Counted from the stretch's first letter, positions 15,574 through 26,694 are shown. The stretch: DNA of 64,000 nucleotides from Candidatus Zixiibacteriota bacterium (GCA_024278935.1 JAJRSF010000051.1:1963-65962), one strand, 5' to 3'. Program-made: numbers and translations. The notes: a model not told the origin generated them from the sequence alone.

Positions 15574-17349
15574 TTAAAGCGGGATTTCTATTGTGAAAGT
15601 CGAACCTATGCCAAGTTCGCTTTCAACTGAAACAGCCCCCTTGTGGAGCAATGAAATATGTTTGACAATCGCCAAGCCGAGTCCTGTCCCGCCAAGTTCT
15701 CGGCTCCGAGCTTTGTCGGCTCGATAGAACCGTTCAAACAAGCGGTCATGATGTCTGCTTTCAATCCCGACCCCTTCATCGGTTACGATGACTTTAAATC
15801 TGTTGGACTCTTTTTCAAGATGCACAAAAACTGTTGAATCTTGTGAACTGTAATTTATCGCATTATCTAAAAGATTTATAACCGCTTGTTCAAAAAGTGG
15901 AATATTGGTGTCCGCTTCAATCGACTCATCACCGCTTAGCTGAATTGTAATATTTCTCTTATTTGCTTTATGTTCACAAATCTGAATAGACGATTGGATT
16001 ACAGAAAATATATTTGCTCGTTCAAAATTGATATCTTCAACATCGGAACCTTGTTCAATCCGAGAAAGCGATACCAGATCTTCAATTATGCTGGTCAACC
16101 TGTTGGCTTGTTTTGATATGATACCAAGAAATTTTTCGACATCTTCTTTATTGTCAGTTCCGCTATCAATAAGCGTTTCAACGAACCCTTTAATAGATGT
16201 TATCGGTGTCCGAAGTTCATGCGAAACATTGGCAACAAAATCCTGTCTGATATTTTCTAAAAAACGTAACCGAGTTATATCGTTAAGCACAAGTAAAATC
16301 CCAATCACACTGCCCGATGCACCTTTGAGAATAGAACTATTATAGCTTATAAATTTTTCTTTCTGAAGGCTCTGGGTAATCTCACCTTCGTGCGGTTTGT
16401 TCTCTTTAAGTGTTTTGATTACAATTTCCTGAAGCTCGGCATTCCGAATAATTTCATAAACCGACTTCCCTTGTGCATCTTCGGGGTCAACACCAAACAG
16501 TTCGCCGGCAGCCTTGTTCATATTAAGTATGTTTTCCGATTTGTCTATAGCAATTACAGATTCGACCATACTTTGTAAAATAACTTTTTGTTCATTTCTC
16601 TGTCTGGTGATAATTTTAATCCGCTCATCAAGTTCTGTCGCCATTATGTTCATCGCAATTGCAAGCTGGGCGATCTCTTCTGAATCTGAAATCGGAAGAT
16701 GATTTTCAAAATCACCTTTTGCAAATCGTTCAGCACCAACTTTTAACTCTTCAAGTGGTTGGCTGATTCTTTTGGAAATAAAATAAGCAGTTAAAGCGGC
16801 AAGTATCGCCACAATAAACAAAGCAAAAAGTATTTTAACAGAGAGTGCATTAATTGTTTTGTTAATAGATTCAATCGTCACCGACAACCGAAGTACCCCG
16901 ACAACTTCACCCTCATGCTCAAGTCGGATTGCTAAATACATCATAGAGCGTTGAAGCGTATTACTGTATCGAATCGAATTACCGGTCAGTCCTGACAATG
17001 CGTTTTGCATCTCAGCACGAGAGCTATGATTATCCATCTTCGATGGGTTCTCTTCAGAGTCAGCTATGACTATTCCATTCGGAAGCATAACGGTAATGCG
17101 AGTCTCAGATACTTTTCCAATTTCCGTACAACGTTTTTGCAAAGATAAACTATCAAGCTGGTCATCAACTAATAATGGAATTACTTGCGACTGCAGTATA
17201 TATGATTTAGATAATAAACTTTTTTGGGTCTCTTCGATATAAAACGACTTCAATGTTGAAAAAGAGAACCATGTAAGAGCCAGCAATGACAATGTAATAA
17301 TCAATGTAAACGGAATTATCAAAAGCCGTATCATTTTTTTCTTAGCCAC
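15574..17349 (-). CDS. phoR: Phosphate regulon sensor histidine kinase
   Basis: 2 TM, HAMP, PAS, FVANVSHELRTP, FERFYRADKARSRELGGTGLGLAIVKH. Confidence 0.93.
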   Translation of the reverse strand: MAKKKMIRLLIIPFTLIITLSLLALTWFSFSTLKSFYIEETQKSLLSKSYILQSQVIPLLVDDQLDSLSLQKRCTEIGKVSETRITVMLPNGIVIADSEENPSKMDNHSSRAEMQNALSGLTGNSIRYSNTLQRSMMYLAIRLEHEGEVVGVLRLSVTIESINKTINALSVKILFALFIVAILAALTAYFISKRISQPLEELKVGAERFAKGDFENHLPISDSEEIAQLAIAMNIMATELDERIKIITRQRNEQKVILQSMVESVIAIDKSENILNMNKAAGELFGVDPEDAQGKSVYEIIRNAELQEIVIKTLKENKPHEGEITQSLQKEKFISYNSSILKGASGSVIGILLVLNDITRLRFLENIRQDFVANVSHELRTPITSIKGFVETLIDSGTDNKEDVEKFLGIISKQANRLTSIIEDLVSLSRIEQGSDVEDINFERANIFSVIQSSIQICEHKANKRNITIQLSGDESIEADTNIPLFEQAVINLLDNAINYSSQDSTVFVHLEKESNRFKVIVTDEGVGIESRHHDRLFERFYRADKARSRELGGTGLGLAIVKHISLLHKGAVSVESELGIGSTFTIEIPL

Positions 17350-17351
17350 GA

Positions 17352-18038
17352 CTACTCCTTAAACCTATATCCGATTCCACGAACCGTTTCAATATTTTTA
17401 CCGGACTCACCAAGTTTTTTTCGCAGTCCGACAATTTGTACATCGATCGAACGATCGGTAATAATTGTATCTTCACCACGAATAGCATCTATAAGTTGAT
17501 CTCTTGTAAAAACCCAACCCGGTTTTTGAGCAAGATGATGCAGTATCTGAAACTCTGTCAAAGTTAATGCCACCGGTTTGCTCTGTACCAACACTTCAAA
17601 TTTAGCAGGGTCGATTGATATATCTGTCAATTTTATAATTGATTTGCTGGTGACCTCTTTTGCTTTTAACCGTCTGAACAACGACCGAATACGTGCTACT
17701 AATACTCTTGGAGAAAATGGTTTGCTCAGATAATCATCGGCACCTAACTCAAGCCCGGTCACAACATCGGACTCATCCGATTTTGCCGTTATCATAATAA
17801 TTGGAATATGTTCAGTATTTGAATCTTTTTTTAACTGACGACAAATCTCAAGCCCATCAACACCCGGAAGCATCAAATCAAGCAGAACCATATCCGGTTT
17901 TAATTCTATAACACCGGTAAGCCCTTCTTCCCCTGTTAAAAACCCGGTGACTTTATACCCTTCTTTTGAAAGGTTAAAACTTATCAATTCTTGAATATCA
18001 ACTTCATCTTCAATTATTACTATATGCTTATTAATCAT
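17352..18038 (-). CDS. phoB: Phosphate regulon response regulator (OmpR/PhoB family)
   Basis: REC domain LLDLMLP, winged helix RSIDVQI..LRKKL, IETVRGIGYRF; upstream of phoR. Confidence 0.92.
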   Translation of the reverse strand: MINKHIVIIEDEVDIQELISFNLSKEGYKVTGFLTGEEGLTGVIELKPDMVLLDLMLPGVDGLEICRQLKKDSNTEHIPIIMITAKSDESDVVTGLELGADDYLSKPFSPRVLVARIRSLFRRLKAKEVTSKSIIKLTDISIDPAKFEVLVQSKPVALTLTEFQILHHLAQKPGWVFTRDQLIDAIRGEDTIITDRSIDVQIVGLRKKLGESGKNIETVRGIGYRFKE

Positions 18039-18126: not shown

Positions 18127-18158
18127 AAAAAAAAAGACCGGTAAATTTACCGGTCTTT
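18127..18158 (-). terminator. Intrinsic terminator after S8-PKD peptidase
   Basis: AAAGACCGGTAAA/TTTACCGGTCTTT stem followed by a T9 run on the minus strand. Confidence 0.85.
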
Positions 18159-18180: not shown

Positions 18181-20591
18181 TTATTTCATCAATACCATTT
18201 TCTTGGTATCTACATTGACACCGGAAGTTAAACGGTAAAAATAAATACCTGATGGCTTTGTAGTCGCATCCCATGATACTGTATGAGTACCGGCAGTTAA
18301 CGAACCTGAAACAAGCTGTTCTACTTTTTGACCATTAATATTAAATATTTCAAGAGTCACAAAAGATGCTTGTGCTAAACTGAATGAAATATCAGTAGTT
18401 GGGTTAAACGGATTTGGATAGTTTTGGTTTAATCCAAATGTTCCCGGAAGAACTAACTCTACTGCGATTCCATCATTAAAGGCATAACCACTTTCACATC
18501 CTTTAGTAACAACATTTGATGCAGGGTTGTAGCTGTTTGATGCATGAGTTACATTTGTTACTTCAAAACACCATTCAGATGTAACAGTTTTTGTTTTAGA
18601 AGTTAAGAAATCTACAGTTCCATCAGTTCCTGTAACTCCAGAATAACTTCCACCGGTAGGACCGGTAGCTGTTACATAAACAGTCGCACCTGATAAAGGC
18701 TGGTCATTACTATCAAAATTGTAACCACACCATAACCACTATAATTACGACCTGTTCTGTATTGTGATACAGCAATGTCATAAACATACATAGTTCCACC
18801 AACTGGTGGCTCTGTTACAGTAATATAATCTACAACTGTTTTAGTGTCAGAACCATATGCATTTGTAGCTGTTAATGCTACGGTATAGGTTCCTGATACA
18901 TTGTATGTATATGATGGGTTCTGAACTGTGGATGTTCCACCATCACCAAATGTCCAACTCCACGATGTTGGACCATTAGTAGATAAATCAGTGAAGTTTA
19001 CATCTAACGGATAATCACCTGAAGTAGGTGTACCACTAAAGTTTGCAACTGGAGGATCAGCTGGAGGTGTTGTAACTGTAATATACCCAACTTTAGTGTC
19101 AGCATCTGAACCAAATGCATTTGTTGCTGTAAGTGTCACGGTATAAGTACCGGCAGCATTATATATATATGATGGGTTCTGTGCGGTGGAAGTTCCACCG
19201 TCGCCAAATGTCCAGCTCCATGATGTTGGGCTGTTCACAGATAAATCAGTAAAACTTACATTTAAAGGGACGTCGCCTGACGTTGGTGTTCCTGAAAAAT
19301 TCGCAACTGGAGGATCATTACTAGGAGTAACAAGTTGTATAGCTGCGTTTGCATCAAGAAGCCCGTACCCATATTCTCGATCCCATCCTGTTGGACCTAA
19401 ATCTAAAGCAGAGTTCTGTAAAATATCTTGCACTTCGTCGGGAGTTAAAGTTCCACCTGAAGCACCGATAACTAACGCTGCAACACCTGCTACGTGAGGA
19501 GATGCCATCGATGTACCTTGATAGAAATAATAAGAAAATGCAGTATAGTTAGAACCATCATGAGTTTGCTGTAAAACGCCATCAATATATCCATCACCAT
19601 CTTGATCAACTCCTGTGTCGCCACCTGGAGCAGCAATATCTACAGAATCATTATAGGTAGAATATCCTGTAATTGTTGAATCAAGTCTGACTGCTGAAAC
19701 AGATACATAAGCTTCGTTAGCGGCAGGATACTCTAATATTAATCTACCTGAGTTACCTGCTGCACAAATAATTGTTACTCCTTGTGCTTTCGCATAATTA
19801 CAAGCATCATTCATAATAGTAGAAAAATAGGATGAACCTAAACTCATATTAATTACTTTTGCTCCATTGTCAGCAGCATAATAAATACCATTGGCAATAA
19901 CATCAGTTGCACCAGAACCTGCAGCATCTAAAACTTTTACAGGCATAATTGAACAATTATAAGCAATACCTGTCACACCTAAATTATTATTAGTAGACTG
20001 AGCTATTGTTCCTGCGACATGAGTTCCATGACCATTGTCATCATTAGGATGAGTGTCATTGTTTATGAAATCGTACCCTTGCACAAAATTTGTTTGTGCC
20101 AAATCAGGTGCTTGAGCATAAACGTCATAATCTTCGTACGCAACACCGGCATCTAAAATAGCTACAATAACACCAGTACCTGTGTTTTGATCCCATGCTT
20201 GTTCCATATTAATCATTGGCATATGCCATTGATAGCCATAATAAGGATCGTTTGGCACCATATAAGATGTATAAATATAATTTGGTTCTGCAAATAAAAC
20301 ATTTGGATCAGCAGAATATTCCGCTACCATTTCTTCAACTGTTTTATTTGAAGGAATTGCAATATACTTATACCCACCTTTGATACTTTCTTTAATCGTA
20401 GAACATCCAAAACTATTAACTGTTTTAGAACTTTCAATCGTATCTTTAAACTTGACTAAGATTTGTCCCGGTACATAGTCTTGACTTGATTGAACTGTTG
20501 TTGTTGTTTTGACTTTAAAAAGTGGAGCTGCTAAAACAATTGTTGATACTAATAATGCACTGATGAGTAAAAAGGTTAAAACTTTTTTCAT
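18181..20591 (-). CDS. Secreted S8 subtilase with two PKD domains and C-terminal FlgD/T9SS-like domain (about 803 aa; one-base frameshift at 18715-18718)
   Basis: Triad ILDAG / HGTHVAG / GTSMASPH; two PKD repeats (WSWTFGDG); adding one base to the run at 18715-18718 continues to QNYPNPFNP...SGIYFYRL...KKMVLMK* ending at 18181. Confidence 0.88.
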
Positions 20592-20724
20592 TGTGATTCC
20601 CAGGTTTTTAGTTTCCTATTCATTTTCTTTACTATCCATATGTCTTAAATGCCTTGCCACCTCCTAAGTGGTTTAATGTTATTCTATTAAAAATATCTAT
20701 ATAAAATAAATCATGTTAAGTTTC

Positions 20725-20760
20725 AGATTAAAGAGGATTTAAAGTGTTGAAAAAATACAC
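20725..20760 (-). promoter_or_regulatory. Candidate ECF-sigma promoter, copy C
   Basis: GTGTATTTTT...CTCTTTAATCT, same motif as copies A and B with spacer one base longer. Confidence 0.45.
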
Positions 20761-20934
20761 AATAGTGGAGATTAAAATACATATTGGTTTATAATTCTTA
20801 GTTAGTGCTTATTAAAAGAGATTGAATTAACGTTAGTCGCATTTCACATTGAAGATATTTACATAAAAAAAGATTGCCTCCTAGCACCATAGTTTTGGAC
20901 TATTGACTGTAGATATGTTATTTTTTATTGGTTT

Positions 20935-20970
20935 AATATTAAAGAGAATCGGGAATGCCAAAAAATACAT
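20935..20970 (-). promoter_or_regulatory. Candidate ECF-sigma promoter, copy B
   Basis: ATGTATTTTTTGGCATTCCCGATTCTCTTTAATATT; aligns without gaps to copy A. Confidence 0.55.
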
Positions 20971-20992
20971 CAAAATTGATTATATATACAAT

Positions 20993-21030
20993 AAAAGCCT
21001 CTGTTATCTTTAATAACACAGAGGCTTTTT
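20993..21030. terminator. Intrinsic terminator after S8-dockerin gene
   Basis: AAAAGCCTCTGT...ACAGAGGCTTTT inverted repeat. Confidence 0.8.
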
Positions 21031-21051
21031 ACTTACTAATTTGTATACGAT

Positions 21052-22506
21052 TTACTTAGAGTCGTCACCTGACTTATAACAAGGCTTAAACTCACGCCAT
21101 TTTATAAATAAATGATGCACCATTATTGCCACATCAGCCATATTTGCATTACCATCACAGTTGAGATCAACCATCTCATCGGTAATTATAAATCCGTTTC
21201 GAGATTTAACTTTGACAGACTTACCTTCGTTACCACCCTGAGAGATAAAATCAATCATTTTCGATAGATCAGTTATATCACGAACACCGTCGATATTAAT
21301 ATCACCGATTGAAAGTTGTACGACCGCATCCAAGCTATTAATCATACCATAGCCATACTGTTCATCCGGGACCATCACTGTTCCCCAAAGAAGTTCGCTT
21401 CTTGAAGTGTAGTGTAAGTGGTTTTGAATATCTTTTGGTGTATACTTTTGATTTAACTGTTTCATCATCGCAACAGTTCCCGAAACGATTGGTGCCGAAA
21501 ATGATGTCCCGCTCCAAGTACCCCAGTCATAATCACCTGCCAGTGAACTGTATATATTAACACCCGGTGCAACAATATCAACATAACTACCATAGTTTGA
21601 AAAACCTGCGAGTTACTCTGACATATCAACTGCTGAAACTGCAATTACATCAGGATGTGCCGCAGGATAGGATGGAATAGCAGTTCCTTCATTACCGGTA
21701 GCAGCTATCATGACAACATTCTTTGAATTGGCATCGTCGATTGCTTCACTTAAAACAGAAATCATATCTGTAGTTCCAAAACTCATATTAATAATATCAG
21801 CCCCATGCCTAACCGCCCAGTCAATTGCTTGAGCAACATTAAATTGATCACCAATACCATCACCATCAAACGCACGTAAAGGAATAATCGAAACATCAGG
21901 AGCTGTCAATAATAAAAGACCTGTCACAAATGTTCCATGACCGTAAATCGTACCGGGTTGCTCCGATGCGTCCGAACTTATTGTAATAAAATCATGACCA
22001 TCTAAAATATTTGAATTCAGCATCAATGGATGTAAATAATCTATACCATTATCAATGACCGCAATAACAACACCCTGACCTGTAGAAAGAAGTTGGGCAG
22101 AATCAATGCCTATATCATAAGTACCTTCTTGAGCATAATAATCTTGTGGGGATATTCCTTTATTGAAAATCGGTACCGATTCATCAGGGAATCCCTGACT
22201 GATTTGAAATACTTCGGGAATATCAATCGATGTGTTTATCGAAGCAAGTTCGACATCTGCGTTGCTGTTTAATTCATCAACAACTTCATCAACAGATCTA
22301 CTCTCTGAAAATGTTAATAAATATGTACTGCTTGATGGTATTGAATCAGCAACAACAGCTTGTAAATCTTCCGCAATAGAAATAATCTGTTCGTTACTTT
22401 TAACTTTTACTACAGCTTCACCTGCCCGTTTTTTTCCCGCGAAAACAAGCGAGCTGCTGAAAAGGAAAATCGAGATTATGATGGCAATCGATGTGGTTCG
22501 TCTCAT
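21052..22506 (-). CDS. Secreted S8 subtilase with C-terminal dockerin-like domain; in-frame TAA at 21613-21615
   Basis: Signal peptide, VIDNG and HGTFVTG upstream of the stop; same frame continues LAGFSNYGSYVDIVAPG...WSGTSFSAP then GDINIDG..DITD / DLNCDG..MAD dockerin repeats. Confidence 0.85.
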
Positions 22507-22537
22507 ATTTTTTCTCTATACATTTTAAAAGTTTAAA

Positions 22538-25290
22538 TTAATTCCCAATTAAAATAAATGCACCCCAATATGCCGGGTCCTCTATTTCTGTTGATATATA
22601 TTGTACTGCTTGTAAATAAGCTACTTTAATATTCTTTGTTTGAGATAGTTGTTTATAAAACTCGTTCATAAACAACATAGTTACTTTGTCATCAACTGGC
22701 CATAGCGATGCAAGGACATATCGACTGCCTGCTCGGTAAAAGGCTTTTGCCAGCGAGAAAGTATTACCATAATTTAACCCCGGAGCGGCTGTTTGGCAAC
22801 CAGAAAGTGTAACTAATTCCGCAGCAATCCCCTCGCCTATAAAATCAAATGGGAAAAGAACACCGTCGGAAAACATTATCCGTGAAAAAAGAGGGTTCTC
22901 CGATGATCGCGATGCGTGTGCTGCTATATGAATAAATCCGGTCGACTCTTTAAATTCTTTTAACAGTGCAACTCTACTTGCCTTCTCAGCTTTATAATGA
23001 CGGGATTTTTTATACTGCCCATAAATCTGCTCTCCTTCAATATCAACAAGAGGTAACGATTTATGCGAAACAGAAAATATTGAATTTCGAAGTTTGGAAA
23101 AATCTATCTTCTCAACTCTCTCTTTATATAACGAATCAGGGTCAGCAATTATTTTGACCGTATACATATCCTTTATATATTTCCCATCATCATGACACAA
23201 TGCGATAAACGGAATCTGATTAAAAACAGAATCAGGGATTATAAGAAGTGTTGTTATCTTTTTATCAAGTTCAATCGGAGCAATAAGCAGTTTGTATAAT
23301 TTTTTCAGATAGGCATTTTTATATCTAACGAAGTTGTCATGTTTGTCTTATGGATCGACTGTTCAAACAAAAATTGAATCTTCCTGATAAGTGCTTTTAA
23401 CTCATCAACAGTAATTTCCAAATCAATATACTTAATTTCATTTGCACTCTGTATGAAGACCCCAACAGTTTCACCGGAAATAAAATAATGTATCACCGCT
23501 TCATCAACTGATGGTCTGTACGATTTAAAGTCTGCCAACTTATGCTTAACATTTTGTTGCTCAACTTCAAAATACGCTCTCGACTTTTGCTCTAAGTGCC
23601 AAAGTTGTTTTTCATGCTTTAAAATATCAGCAGAACCAGTAACAACTCGTTTCCCTTTTTGGGGATACTTATATGCAACTGATAATGTCTGACGTAATGA
23701 CTTAATTTGAGATAAAATTTTATCAGGGACATTCCCCTCAAGCGATTTAGTAGAAACAAATTGTGCATTCAACAGTGACAATGCTTTCATCTGTTGCAGA
23801 TACGATTTTTCTACATCACCAAGTTGCAGTGAACATTCGACCAACCGTGAATACATCTTAAATTTATCAGCAGCAAAGAAAAACTTTATTTCATCATAAT
23901 GCAATGACTGCATCATCTTTTCTACTATCAAAATTGCTTTTTTAAATTCAGTAATTGCTATCGTAAATTTCTTCTTTGAAAAATAATATTCACCGACTAA
24001 CCCATGAACTTTTCGTTGTTGCTCTAAAGTAATTTCGCTTTGTTTTAATCTCTTTAATTTGGCGAATGCTCTCTTTTCATTTTTTGACAAAAAGAGTGCT
24101 TGTATATGAGAAAGTTCAGCATCATGTTCTCTTCTAATATCTTTACTCTTTTTATAATACTTCAACGCCAAATCAGATGCTTCTAACGCTTTTGTATATT
24201 TCTTTTGACCTATATAAAGAGAACTATAGGCAGACTGTATCATACCTAACCAGAGATTATTATTTTCTTTTTTGAATATTTTCTGAGAAGCTTTAAGTAA
24301 TTTTTTCGCTTGCTCAATATCACCTAACTCAATCTTTGCAATCGCCGCAAAATAGTATGCCTTCCCCTCTTCGTAAGGCATCTTATATTTTTTGAAAATA
24401 GGAATTATAATTTCAGCAAACATAATAGCAGAACCATACTGATTTAATTGCAAATTCAGTTCCGCTAAATCAAGTTGTGTAATAGCGGCAGTAGTTTTGT
24501 CGCCTAAAATTTCTAATGAATCGTATACTTTTTCAAACAGATTCAAAGCATCGCTGTATTTACTTTCTAAAAACAGAAGATAGGCTATCGAGTATTCGGT
24601 TTGTTGATAAGCGAGTTCCATATTGGCGTTTTTATAAAACTGCCCCGCCTCAAGATACAATTTTTTCGCTTGAACAAGCTGATTCATATTGGTATAAATA
24701 TTAGCTCTGTTAAAATCTACAATCGCACAGGCAATACCGCCATCTTTTGTAAAGATTTCTTTTGCATTGTCATAGTACAAAAGTGCCAATCGGTTTTTGT
24801 CCATACGATGATACATATTCCCGATATTAGTCATCACCTGTCCGGCTTGACTACTCAATTTTTTCCGTTTGAAATAACGCAGAGCTTCTTTACCAACTTT
24901 GAGACCTTTATCATATTTAGAAAGATACCTATACACTTCAATCATACCTTTGCGAATCATTGCAGCAGCATGAAAATCTCTTTGAGCAGTAGCATGCGAA
25001 AGAGCTTTTTTGTAAAATTTTAATGAAGTCGTATAATCGGCGTTCCACAATGCAAGCCTTGCTCGCATCGCAAATAGTTTATCCTGATATTCTTTTGGTA
25101 TAAATTTAAAACAGTCAATCACAGCTTGCAGATAATTATCGGCATCAGTTATACTGACCCGATACAAACTATTTAAGCTTCTGCTTATCTCTGCAATAAA
25201 TAATTTACAGTCATTGCTATATTCTAAATGCAATAACTGTTTTAAATCATCTCTGCTTGTAATCTGTTTTATAATCTTAATATCAATCAT
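22538..25290 (-). CDS. TPR-CHAT (caspase HetF-associated) protease, about 917 aa; one-base frameshift at 23316-23320
   Basis: Long TPR array; adding one A joins the two ORFs via KLYKLLIAPI...LLIIPDSVFNQIPFIAL; catalytic IHIAAHA and LVTLSGCQT; SLWPVDD and YWGAF. Confidence 0.9.
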
Positions 25291-25874
25291 AACGACAATT
25301 CAATAACGCCTTCTTTTTCATTTTCAAATGTAAACAACAAAGAACATTTCCCGGCATCAATTCGATCAAACCGAAACAGACCAAACTCATCAATTTCGAC
25401 AACTTGTGAAGACCTACCAGACTTGGCTTTGATTTTTATTTTTTCATTTTTATCAAAATCTTGTATCTGCCCAATAAGCTCAACAGAATCTATAGTTGTT
25501 GGATATACCGTCAACGCAACGAGCAGTTCACCAACCTGATATTTTAACTGACGAGTATCAACCGATGCAGGACGGACACCTTCGGGGAGCGGAAGAAGCG
25601 ACGAGTCAAAAACCTGCACTCCAAACTGTTTCTGTGAATTTGATTTCTCTTTGAGAAAATCTTTATACAACGTTTGAGAAAGTTTTTTCGAAGCTGCAAA
25701 CAGCTCTTGAGAGTTCTGAGGCGAAACTTGATATAGCTGTTTCAGCAAGTCATAATAATCCGACAATTCTGAGTCATTTTGAAGCTCAACTAAGAGAGTT
25801 ATTTTCTGCTCCCCCTGTAACGAACCAGCCAAAAGAGACTTAAGTCGTTCGATTTTTTCTATACTTATTCCCAT
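25287..25874 (-). CDS. Soluble putative anti-sigma factor (helical N-domain + C-terminal beta-sandwich, carboxypeptidase-regulatory-like)
   Basis: Directly after the ECF gene, overlaps CHAT start by 4 bp; FDS...LPEGVR..RQLKY and DEFGLFRFDRI motifs; no TM helix; function inferred from context. Confidence 0.55.
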   Translation of the reverse strand: MGISIEKIERLKSLLAGSLQGEQKITLLVELQNDSELSDYYDLLKQLYQVSPQNSQELFAASKKLSQTLYKDFLKEKSNSQKQFGVQVFDSSLLPLPEGVRPASVDTRQLKYQVGELLVALTVYPTTIDSVELIGQIQDFDKNEKIKIKAKSGRSSQVVEIDEFGLFRFDRIDAGKCSLLFTFENEKEGVIELSL

Positions 25875-25894
25875 TTTCCACCTCTAGATATTGG

Positions 25895-25930
25895 TATATT
25901 ATAGAGACTTATTAAATGCATAAAATACAT
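25895..25930 (-). promoter_or_regulatory. Candidate ECF-sigma promoter, copy A (drives anti-sigma/CHAT/S8 genes)
   Basis: ATGTATTTTATGCATTTAATAAGTCTCTATAATATA in the 63-bp gap between sigma and anti-sigma genes. Confidence 0.55.
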
Positions 25931-25937
25931 ATTTTCT

Positions 25938-26498
25938 TTAAAAACCTCTTCTTTTAAGTATCTTTTTCAGTTTTTTCAGAGACCGAATCCGAGTAGGACC
26001 TATCGAGGCTACCGGAATGTTCAGTTTTTGAGAGATCTCTTCATAACTTGGCTCTTCTTCATCTAAGAACAAGTACCATATTAACTTATACTCTTTTTCA
26101 GGTAGCTCAACAACCGCCTTTATCAATGATTCCAAATTTTTGGACTCATCTAAAAGCTCATCTGGTGACTTTATCCGAGTTGTAGAAATAGATTTCGTAA
26201 TTTCAGGGTCAATATTATCAAAAAGCTGTTTTCGGCGAATAACCCGCAGAATTTCCCGTCTGGTAATAGTTGACACATAGCCGATAATTTTATCCGATGA
26301 TTTCAAGTTCGGTAGATGATGCAGCAACAGATAACAAACCTGCCCAAAAATGTCCAAAGACTCATCAGGTGACAACCGCATGACTCGGCAGACCGATAAA
26401 ATTGCCGGCGTAATTTTTTCTACTAATTCAGCCCAAGCAGGTTCATCACCTAAAATACAGCGGTCTATAAGTTTTTGGTACTCTGATTTGTTCGGCAT
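25938..26498 (-). CDS. ECF-family RNA polymerase sigma factor
   Basis: Region 2 (GDEPAWAELV...DIFGQV) and region 4 (SYEEISQKLNIPVASIGPTRIRSLKKL); start at ATG 26498. Confidence 0.92.
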   Translation of the reverse strand: MPNKSEYQKLIDRCILGDEPAWAELVEKITPAILSVCRVMRLSPDESLDIFGQVCYLLLHHLPNLKSSDKIIGYVSTITRREILRVIRRKQLFDNIDPEITKSISTTRIKSPDELLDESKNLESLIKAVVELPEKEYKLIWYLFLDEEEPSYEEISQKLNIPVASIGPTRIRSLKKLKKILKRRGF

Positions 26499-26694
26499 AG
26501 TTGCTTTTGTTTTTGCTAGATTAATGTTAAAGCATATAGTACAAAGTACACGAATTATCAAAAAAGACAATAGAAAATCTCTTTTATTATTTCAAACAGA
26601 ACGCCCCACACACTCCCTCTCATTTATTGACATTCCTGTCTATCATGGCTATACTATGACATAAACAAAATACAATTATCTTCCGAGGTGAAAT

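Follow-up and report, generated by a model that had tools for sequence, protein, structure and literature searches.

Among extracytoplasmic function (ECF) sigma factors, group ECF54 was reportedly defined in Actinobacteria by Huang et al. in 2015. Its gene neighbourhood is described as containing conserved carboxypeptidase, subtilase and CHAT proteins, with proteolytic control proposed, in a review whose sources for the group are Huang et al. 2015 and Casas-Pastor et al. 2021 (PMC8999054). ECF54 (Actinobacteria) and ECF58 are neighbours in the sigma factor tree, and they are described with no putative anti-sigma factor or clear regulator (PMC7826278). By experiment, TPR-CHAT proteins acting with ECF-like sigma factors have been studied in just two settings, both of them defence: the RNA-guided Craspase, in which the TPR-CHAT protein Csx29 cleaves Csx30 and so relieves the inhibition of the ECF-like CASP-sigma (PMC10028731), and the membrane-bound DdvA/DdvS of Myxococcus xanthus. 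DdvA joins an anti-sigma domain to a TPR-CHAT with a His-Cys dyad, has the ECF sigma factor DdvS as its partner and is proposed to be triggered by CHAT-mediated cleavage (PMC11506125). It spans the membrane as a single polypeptide, bears a CHCC zinc domain and a TPR-CHAT that lies in the periplasm, and is later cleaved by RseP; according to its authors it is the only characterised anti-sigma factor with a TPR-CHAT, DdvA-like proteins being reported there only in Myxococcota and one Comamonas species (PMC11506125). Here we analyse a five-gene cassette of sigma factor, small protein, TPR-CHAT and subtilase genes in 64,000 nucleotides (nt) of a Candidatus Zixiibacteriota bacterium genome (GCA_024278935.1 JAJRSF010000051.1:1963-65962); this whole stretch is called the window, and positions are counted from its first letter.

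The cassette spans positions 18181-26498 on the minus strand and consists of five head-to-tail genes, encoding a sigma factor, a small protein, a TPR-CHAT and two S8 subtilases (S8a and S8b), all in the place and orientation given in a first-pass annotation made from the sequence alone. Comparison of gene content and order across genomes identifies it as a conserved cross-phylum, CRISPR-independent module of four core genes, in which the small protein is probably a soluble anti-sigma factor of class I type that has lost its zinc motif. The features of the locus are these:

25938..26498, minus strand: ECF-type sigma factor, 186 aa (TIGR02937; first cassette gene in 20/20 loci)
25287..25874, minus strand: putative soluble anti-sigma-like protein, 195 aa (alignment, profile comparison and complex model with sigma)
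23305..25290, minus strand: TPR portion of the TPR-CHAT, as far as the frame break (TPR_12, 72.5 bits)
23300..23330, minus strand: 1-nt deletion in an A-run that splits the TPR-CHAT (sequence; extra base in related contigs)
22538..23200, minus strand: protease portion of the TPR-CHAT, holding the His-Cys dyad (CHAT PF12770, 104.8 bits)
21052..22506, minus strand: S8a, secreted subtilase (S8) that carries a fervidolysin-like propeptide and ends in a dockerin (Pfam matches)
18181..20591, minus strand: S8b, secreted subtilase (S8) that carries two PKD domains and a type IX secretion system (T9SS) sorting domain (Pfam and NCBIfam)
18133..18158, minus strand: terminator-like hairpin, an 11-pair stem followed by a T-run, 3' of S8b (sequence)
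26499..26694, minus strand: region 5' of the sigma gene (upstream-sequence comparison)

Conservation of this arrangement was surveyed in 20 loci around small-protein matches, the genomes concerned belonging to three families within the order. Sigma, small-protein and TPR genes occur in this order and on one strand in all 20, and CHAT and S8a follow in 19, the contig of the twentieth stopping inside the TPR gene. In the window, the stop of the small-protein gene overlaps the TPR-CHAT start (25290) by 4 nt, and an overlap of the same stop and start is found in most of the 20 loci; judged from this layout, the two genes are translationally coupled. A second, larger S8 gene after S8a is present in only 8/20 loci, and S8b is therefore regarded as accessory. 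Of 61 relatives, 23 have the small protein, among them all four other genomes of the genus, and a profile search of the phylum returned matches in 105/285 genomes at E ≤0.001, with up to four matches in some. Strong, full-length matches (E ≤7e-17) account for 72 of the 285 genomes; in the remaining 33 the match is weak and partial, and falls on paralogous or other anti-sigma-like proteins. Of 30 loci found in a species-genome collection, 16 are labelled Zixibacteria, as the closest ones are, 11 uncultured Ignavibacteriales/Ignavibacteriaceae and three otherwise. Outside the cassette, the same-genus contigs that we fetched share nothing with the window, and the orthologues of their flanking genes lie on other contigs of the source genome; the cassette thus stays together while its surroundings change.

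Conservation extends beyond the phylum. A distant clade of the small protein has named members from Anaerolineae, Ardenticatenales and Blastocatellia and one from Rubrobacter tropicus, annotated as 'Carboxypeptidase regulatory-like'. Scanning metagenomes with this clade yielded 66 loci, 62 of them with a strong match, and the neighbours of the small-protein gene in these 62 were as follows:

TPR/CHAT directly downstream: 41/62 metagenome loci
TPR/CHAT directly upstream, giving the order sigma, TPR-CHAT, small protein, S8: 11/62
TPR/CHAT on either side: 52/62; of the 10 without, nine have <700 nt of contig downstream
sigma gene upstream: 48/62; of the 14 without, nine lack room
S8 gene downstream: 22/62; of the 40 without, 37 lack room

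The survey of neighbourhoods that had been proposed with the annotation thus found the order sigma, small protein, TPR-CHAT, S8 kept in the 20 loci and in metagenomes. The variant order sigma, TPR-CHAT, small protein, S8 is seen in L130-L132, L135 and L137-L141, with far larger S8 proteins, their open reading frames (ORFs) reaching ~1800 aa.

The small protein of the window has no Pfam or NCBIfam family match, and its assignment draws on its relatives. Its highest 19-residue Kyte-Doolittle mean is only 1.34, and we therefore take it to be without a transmembrane helix; the description of a 195-residue protein lacking such a helix and overlapping the next start is borne out. An alignment of 19 orthologues divides it into a helical, poorly conserved N-terminal third, read as a putative anti-sigma domain without zinc ligands, a strongly conserved middle segment at residues about 85-112 with the signature FDS...GVRP...R (roughly G-V-x-V-F-D-S-x-L-L-P-L-P-E-G-V-R-P-A-x-V-D-T-R, residues 85-108), and a C-terminal half with a CarboxypepD_reg-like beta-sandwich pattern. 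Scanned singly, four of the 19 orthologues give weak zf-HC2 matches (best E 0.0028) and three give weak CarboxypepD_reg matches (best E 0.0032). Searching the profile against 1.84 billion representative proteins retrieved 524 relatives at E ≤0.001, 121 at 1e-10 and 98 at 1e-30, nearly all of 190-215 aa, and the weaker relatives have the same overall plan. Thirteen weaker relatives out of 40 in the size range 150-230 aa keep the H-x3/4-C-x2-C zinc motif known from ZAS anti-sigma factors; the motif is absent from the window protein, from the strong relatives (0/98) and from a second, A5-type clade (0/117). The profile is homologous to that of the distant clade over its full length (hhalign 99.6%, E 5e-24), and P0133, a Chloroflexi member of the distant family, passes Pfam zf-HC2 at 29.1 bits against a cut-off of 22.2. 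The N-terminal part of the profile, moreover, retrieves multi-domain zf-HC2/RseA_N proteins at E 4e-27, and in two Zixibacteria relatives a paralogous second cassette carries a zinc-motif protein in the slot of the small protein. The small protein is read as an anti-sigma factor because of this domain make-up and of the complex model described below; comparison with solved chains by PDB sequence searches gave no match below E 0.15. Longer, fused relatives were not found in the search, which is weak evidence, and two apparent fusions, of small protein with TPR-CHAT in L029 and of sigma with small protein in L037, were rejected, each being an open frame that runs through a stretch of N.

Several unusual arrangements were seen among these relatives. 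Three proteins of 417-660 aa (P0099, P0109 and P0112) contain four to six tandem zf-HC2/RseA_N-like anti-sigma domains, an uncommon architecture. The second paralogous cassettes lie beside the first (L040:10798-16092 and L037:14268-18059), and their small protein keeps a Cys-x2-Cys zinc motif and the FDS motif with a different C-terminal half. Five of the 20 loci (L029, L034, L037, L038 and L043) have two extra secreted-protein genes before sigma on the same strand, one with a T9SS sorting tail and the other with FG-GAP repeats, which may be an optional extension of the cassette.

The sigma factor passes the NCBIfam model TIGR02937 (sigma70-ECF) over residues 21-181, at 60 bits against a cut-off of 42.9, and its matches to Pfam r2 and r4_2 are weak and under cut-off; on these profiles it belongs to the ECF (group IV) superfamily, as first proposed. 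A complex of sigma with the small protein was modelled with a separate alignment for each chain, in three runs and with three controls. The interaction prediction score from aligned errors (ipSAE) was 0.75 (runs 0.74-0.77), compared with 0.01 for the best control; the runs share at least 95% of contacts, and the predicted local distance difference test (pLDDT) of the partner is at least 83. By calibration, the scoring mark is reached by 58/80 solved complexes and by 2/110 mismatched pairs. The modelled interface comprises residues 18-60 and 122-182 of sigma and residues 3-8, 39-74 and 86-113 of the small protein; as modelled, these contacts have the class I anti-sigma geometry, with binding of sigma-2 and sigma-4. 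Both the anti-sigma role given to the small protein in the first-pass annotation and the binding that it proposed to check in a multimer model are thus favoured, the former also by domain make-up.

In the window, the TPR-CHAT is divided between two ORFs, and in the related Zixibacteria loci its orthologues are single ORFs of 914-939 aa. The motifs IHIAAHA and LSGCQT, cited earlier as an intact catalytic His and Cys, are present in the window CHAT, and the dyad is invariant in 18/18 Zixibacteria orthologues and 30/30 metagenome homologues. The protein has no signal peptide and is predicted from its sequence to be a cytoplasmic protease of the caspase/separase type. Against PDB sequences it gives only TPR matches, plus a weak match to 8rot_B (E 0.02). 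No PADLOC v2 model matches sigma, the small protein or the TPR-CHAT, and the S8 genes receive only generic subtilase and IetS-like matches.

The two subtilases match Peptidase_S8 (PF00082) at 93.3 and 196.6 bits. S8a has a signal-peptide-like N-terminus, a fervidolysin-type propeptide, the Peptidase_S8 domain and a dockerin, which agrees with its earlier description as an exported S8-dockerin protein except for an in-frame TAA that went unmentioned (below). In relatives it is a single ORF, mostly of 470-510 aa, and the Asp-His-Ser triad is complete in 16/16 Zixibacteria orthologues; metagenome S8 proteins (n = 23) all have the His and Ser, and in 16 the Asp aligns as well. S8b resembles S8a in its front half; two PKD domains come next, and the C-terminus is a T9SS sorting domain of type A (TIGR04183 at 50.3 bits, cut-off 23; Por_Secre_tail PF18962 at 43.3 bits). 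Its reading as an exported S8-PKD-FlgD protease holds for the S8 and PKD domains; the tail is the sorting domain, and the 'FlgD' label arises because Pfam FlgD_ig (31.1 bits) overlaps it. A frameshift near 18717 in this gene also escaped notice. The two PKD domains coincide with a 258-nt tandem duplication at 18850-19317 (1.8 copies with 78% matches), and the segment encoding the T9SS tail (18384-18667) shows very high summed contig depth with many loose ends in four sequencing runs, which fits a sorting domain common to many genes of many organisms.

The source genome is a metagenome-assembled genome (MAG) of 3.40 Mb in 68 contigs, 95% complete, and holds one copy of the cassette; two other CHAT genes have neither a sigma nor a small-protein neighbour. 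There is no tandem repeat array in the window and no match to Cas1 in the genome at this completeness, Cas7-11 not having been searched for, which agrees with the absence of a CRISPR link noted earlier. Since CRISPR parts were not found, activation of the cassette would not be RNA-guided. Past the terminator, on the same strand, lie genes for an OmpR-type response regulator (17352-18038) and a histidine kinase (15574-17349), a pair that is not kept beside the cassette in relatives.

Three genes of this copy are disrupted. In the TPR-CHAT, one base is missing in an A-run near 23315 and the frame changes between 23266 and 23338, which is the frameshift said to hide this gene. Contigs of related strains have an extra base behind 23315 in 4/4 public runs from three studies. 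These contigs are 90-95% alike to the window and hence represent related strains, not the source, the best run containing 0.22 of sampled words; as to the proposed repair from reads, the CHAT frame is intact in the related strains, and the source strain is missing from the runs. The run contigs do not cover the S8b break, and no RNA run is listed among the matched sequencing runs. The break in S8a is an in-frame stop and not a frameshift: ahead of the codon for the catalytic Ser, a TAA stands at 21613-21615, a position at which same-genus orthologues encode Leu. In S8b, the frame changes at ~18717 in a T-run, with loss of the last ~178 residues including the sorting domain.

To gauge the error rate of the MAG, ORFs of at least 200 aa on two same-genus contigs were compared with the whole source genome, using orthologues elsewhere because the fetched same-genus contigs share only the cassette with the window. 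In-frame stops or frame changes affect 7/50 orthologue pairs outside the cassette (for example C32:5642, C56:8195 and C56:26491), although two of the seven sit at alignment ends and may be shifted starts or stops. Such defects are thus numerous across the MAG, a high load of sequence errors or pseudogenes. Elsewhere the stops, TAA or TAG, take the place of Ser, Trp, Glu and Gln. Since these and the S8a stop, which takes the place of Leu, stand for several different amino acids, recoding by an alternative genetic code was rejected.

The three disruptions probably reflect this genome-wide load of error or mutation and nothing specific to the cassette. That they are instead real mutations, and the cassette here a decaying cluster of pseudogenes, is possible if doubtful. 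All three long cassette genes are affected, with three defects in 6.6 kb where we estimate ~0.8 from the rate elsewhere, and the S8a TAA is a base substitution, not a homopolymer slip. Set against decay are the spread of nonsense codons and frame changes across the MAG, the position of two of the three cassette defects within homopolymer runs, the intact CHAT frame in related strains, and the intact sigma and small-protein genes.

The arrangement suggests a switch in which sigma and its soluble anti-sigma factor would form an inactive pair, as in the complex model. A signal read by the TPR array of ~690 residues would activate the CHAT dyad, and CHAT would then cut the anti-sigma factor, most likely where the conserved inter-domain segment is exposed, at residues about 95-110. 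This site is a guess: within the segment, residues about 95-108 make no contact with sigma in the model and are the obvious candidate. The fragments would be lost, leaving sigma free to transcribe its targets, a step patterned on Csx29/Csx30/CASP-sigma and on what is proposed for DdvA/DdvS. The TPR-CHAT, made in step with the anti-sigma factor through the overlapping genes, would serve as both sensor and executor, and the secreted subtilase may be its chief output, or may close a feedback loop by returning peptides to the TPR array. The CHAT step is proposed because of the strict gene linkage, the overlapping frames, the invariant dyad and the two experimental precedents, and we regard the cleavage switch as evenly balanced between right and wrong.

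A number of observations weigh against it. Regions upstream of sigma, 21 from Zixibacteria and 24 dereplicated ones from metagenomes, were inspected by eye, and none showed a shared ECF-type motif or autoregulatory promoter. They look sigma-70-like instead (TTG...N17...TAnnnT, with an extended -10 in one metagenome clade); in the window region, 26499-26694, a TTGTCT...TACTTT block is conserved among same-genus copies, and promoter-like sites are not enriched in a consensus scan (38 against a shuffle mean of 36.8). The suggestion that sigma induces the proteases and its own circuit gains no support from these regions. Sigma-70-like upstream sequence would weakly fit a switch that is made constitutively and gated after translation. 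The score of the complex model may be explained in part by similarity to solved sigma/anti-sigma complexes. Residues 86-97 and 109-113 of the conserved segment contact sigma in the model, so that conservation of the segment may come from sigma binding alone. Moreover, the linkage of the secreted S8 is as tight as that of the protease and is unexplained by a simple switch, the published reading of the same neighbourhood assumes no anti-sigma factor (PMC8999054), and in the copy of the window the CHAT gene is split and the S8a frame is stopped short of the catalytic Ser. Given its three disruptions, the function of this copy is uncertain.

Other explanations of the same cassette were weighed against the cleavage switch. 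The zinc motif H-x3/4-C-x2-C is redox-sensitive in RsrA-type anti-sigma factors. Sigma and small protein could be an ordinary pair that is inactivated in some other way, for example by thiol oxidation in the forms with a zinc motif, by partner switching or by general proteolysis, with TPR-CHAT and subtilases as the conserved regulon or output of sigma and not as its regulators. The S8 genes are plausible outputs, 13/40 weaker relatives do keep the motif, and Casas-Pastor et al. point out that regulators and targets are indistinguishable from neighbourhoods (PMC7826278). Yet the motif has gone from the Zixibacteria clade (0/98) and the A5-type clade (0/117) while the module has been kept, the small-protein gene is translationally coupled to TPR-CHAT, a cytoplasmic caspase-like protease would be odd as the sole output of a sigma factor, and both studied TPR-CHAT/sigma systems use the protease as the regulator; we consider an ordinary pair unlikely. 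The suggestion published for ECF54, that the proteases act on sigma itself with no anti-sigma step, appears highly improbable here. Its 'carboxypeptidase' neighbour corresponds to the small protein, which has a putative anti-sigma domain and is modelled on sigma, and the S8 proteins carry signal peptides and therefore cannot meet a cytoplasmic sigma factor.

The switch may also be imagined as an anti-phage or conflict system, in which the TPR recognises an invader protein, CHAT cuts the anti-sigma factor and perhaps other host proteins, and sigma starts a defence programme. Both studied relatives, Craspase and DdvA/DdvS, serve defence, the genomic context differs among same-genus genomes with no common flanks, and some genomes have up to four copies. 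On the other hand, sigma, small protein and TPR-CHAT are without a PADLOC match, the cassette is wide and vertical in the phylum (72/285 genomes), and an invariably linked secreted subtilase better suits nutrition or surface remodelling, which together leave a role in defence very unlikely.

A bolder version of the cleavage switch is a loop across phyla in which proteolysis senses proteolysis. Peptides that the secreted subtilase releases, either from protein outside the cell or from a precursor, would be imported and bind the TPR array, CHAT would cut the anti-sigma factor at the FDS...GVRP...R linker and sigma would be freed. Peptide receptors of the RRNPP type offer a model for peptide binding by TPRs. 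We hold the loop to be distinctly unlikely; if true, it would be the first case of a free-standing bacterial caspase-like protease working a sigma switch without CRISPR, cyclic nucleotides or a membrane step.

Among described systems, the neighbourhood most resembles ECF54, which proves to be the group behind the similar bioinformatic neighbourhoods mentioned in the first-pass annotation (PMC8999054). Judged from neighbourhood alone, the likeness lies in the carboxypeptidase(-regulatory), subtilase and CHAT neighbours, present in the window, in 20/20 Zixibacteria loci and in metagenomes, and the family of the small protein has the actinobacterial Rubrobacter member named 'Carboxypeptidase regulatory-like'. 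The differences are that the host phylum here is Zixibacteria and that ECF54 is described without an anti-sigma factor, whereas the 'carboxypeptidase' neighbour is read here as a soluble one. Our literature search, which covered papers without the supplementary tables of the ECF studies, found none that reads this neighbour as an anti-sigma factor or tests the mechanism. With the type III-E Craspase the cassette shares a protease of TPR-CHAT type, a soluble inhibitor of sigma and a sigma factor that is ECF-like (PMC10028731). It differs in the CRISPR parts (no array in the window and no Cas1 in the genome, with Cas7-11 outside the search), in a 195-aa small protein that matches no solved chain in sequence, Csx30 among them, up to E 10, and in a secreted S8 that belongs to the module. 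DdvA is approached by the weak match of the TPR-CHAT profile to 8rot_B, a 'CHAT domain-containing protein' of 991 residues, which is the length of DdvA (PMC11506125). In contrast to DdvA, anti-sigma factor and TPR-CHAT here are separate, soluble, predicted cytoplasmic gene products with no transmembrane helix and with the zinc motif lost, and the TPR-CHAT is distant in sequence from both Csx29 and DdvA.

More remote parallels exist as well. CalpL/CalpT/CalpS is likewise a tripartite effector of soluble protease, soluble anti-sigma factor and ECF-like sigma factor; its protease, however, is a CRISPR-linked SAVED-Lon activated by cyclic oligoadenylate, not a CHAT (10.1101/2024.05.08.593097). Removal of a class I anti-sigma factor by proteolysis, which frees an ECF sigma factor, is also known from RseA (DegS/RseP) and RsiW (PMC10028731), but these are membrane-spanning anti-sigma factors cut by serine proteases and metalloproteases in the envelope or membrane, whereas everything here except the subtilases is predicted to be cytoplasmic. 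Separase and securin combine a TPR-like helical scaffold and a CHAT-type caspase domain with a small bound inhibitor (PMC11506125); they are eukaryotic and involve no sigma factor, and the likeness of the small protein to securin is an analogy only.

Beside the two experimentally studied settings, the cassette would be a third and simpler form, of soluble protease, soluble anti-sigma factor and sigma factor with no CRISPR part, spread over Zixibacteria, Chloroflexi, Acidobacteria and Actinobacteria. Reading the small protein as an anti-sigma factor turns a vague idea of protease control into a question about three defined proteins, for which an interface is predicted and a segment proposed as the site of cleavage, and such a module could provide a small, orthogonal, protease-gated transcription switch for engineering. 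The type of neighbourhood and the logic are known from the systems above; what is new here is the free-standing soluble form, a host phylum not previously listed and a newly recognised, putative anti-sigma component.

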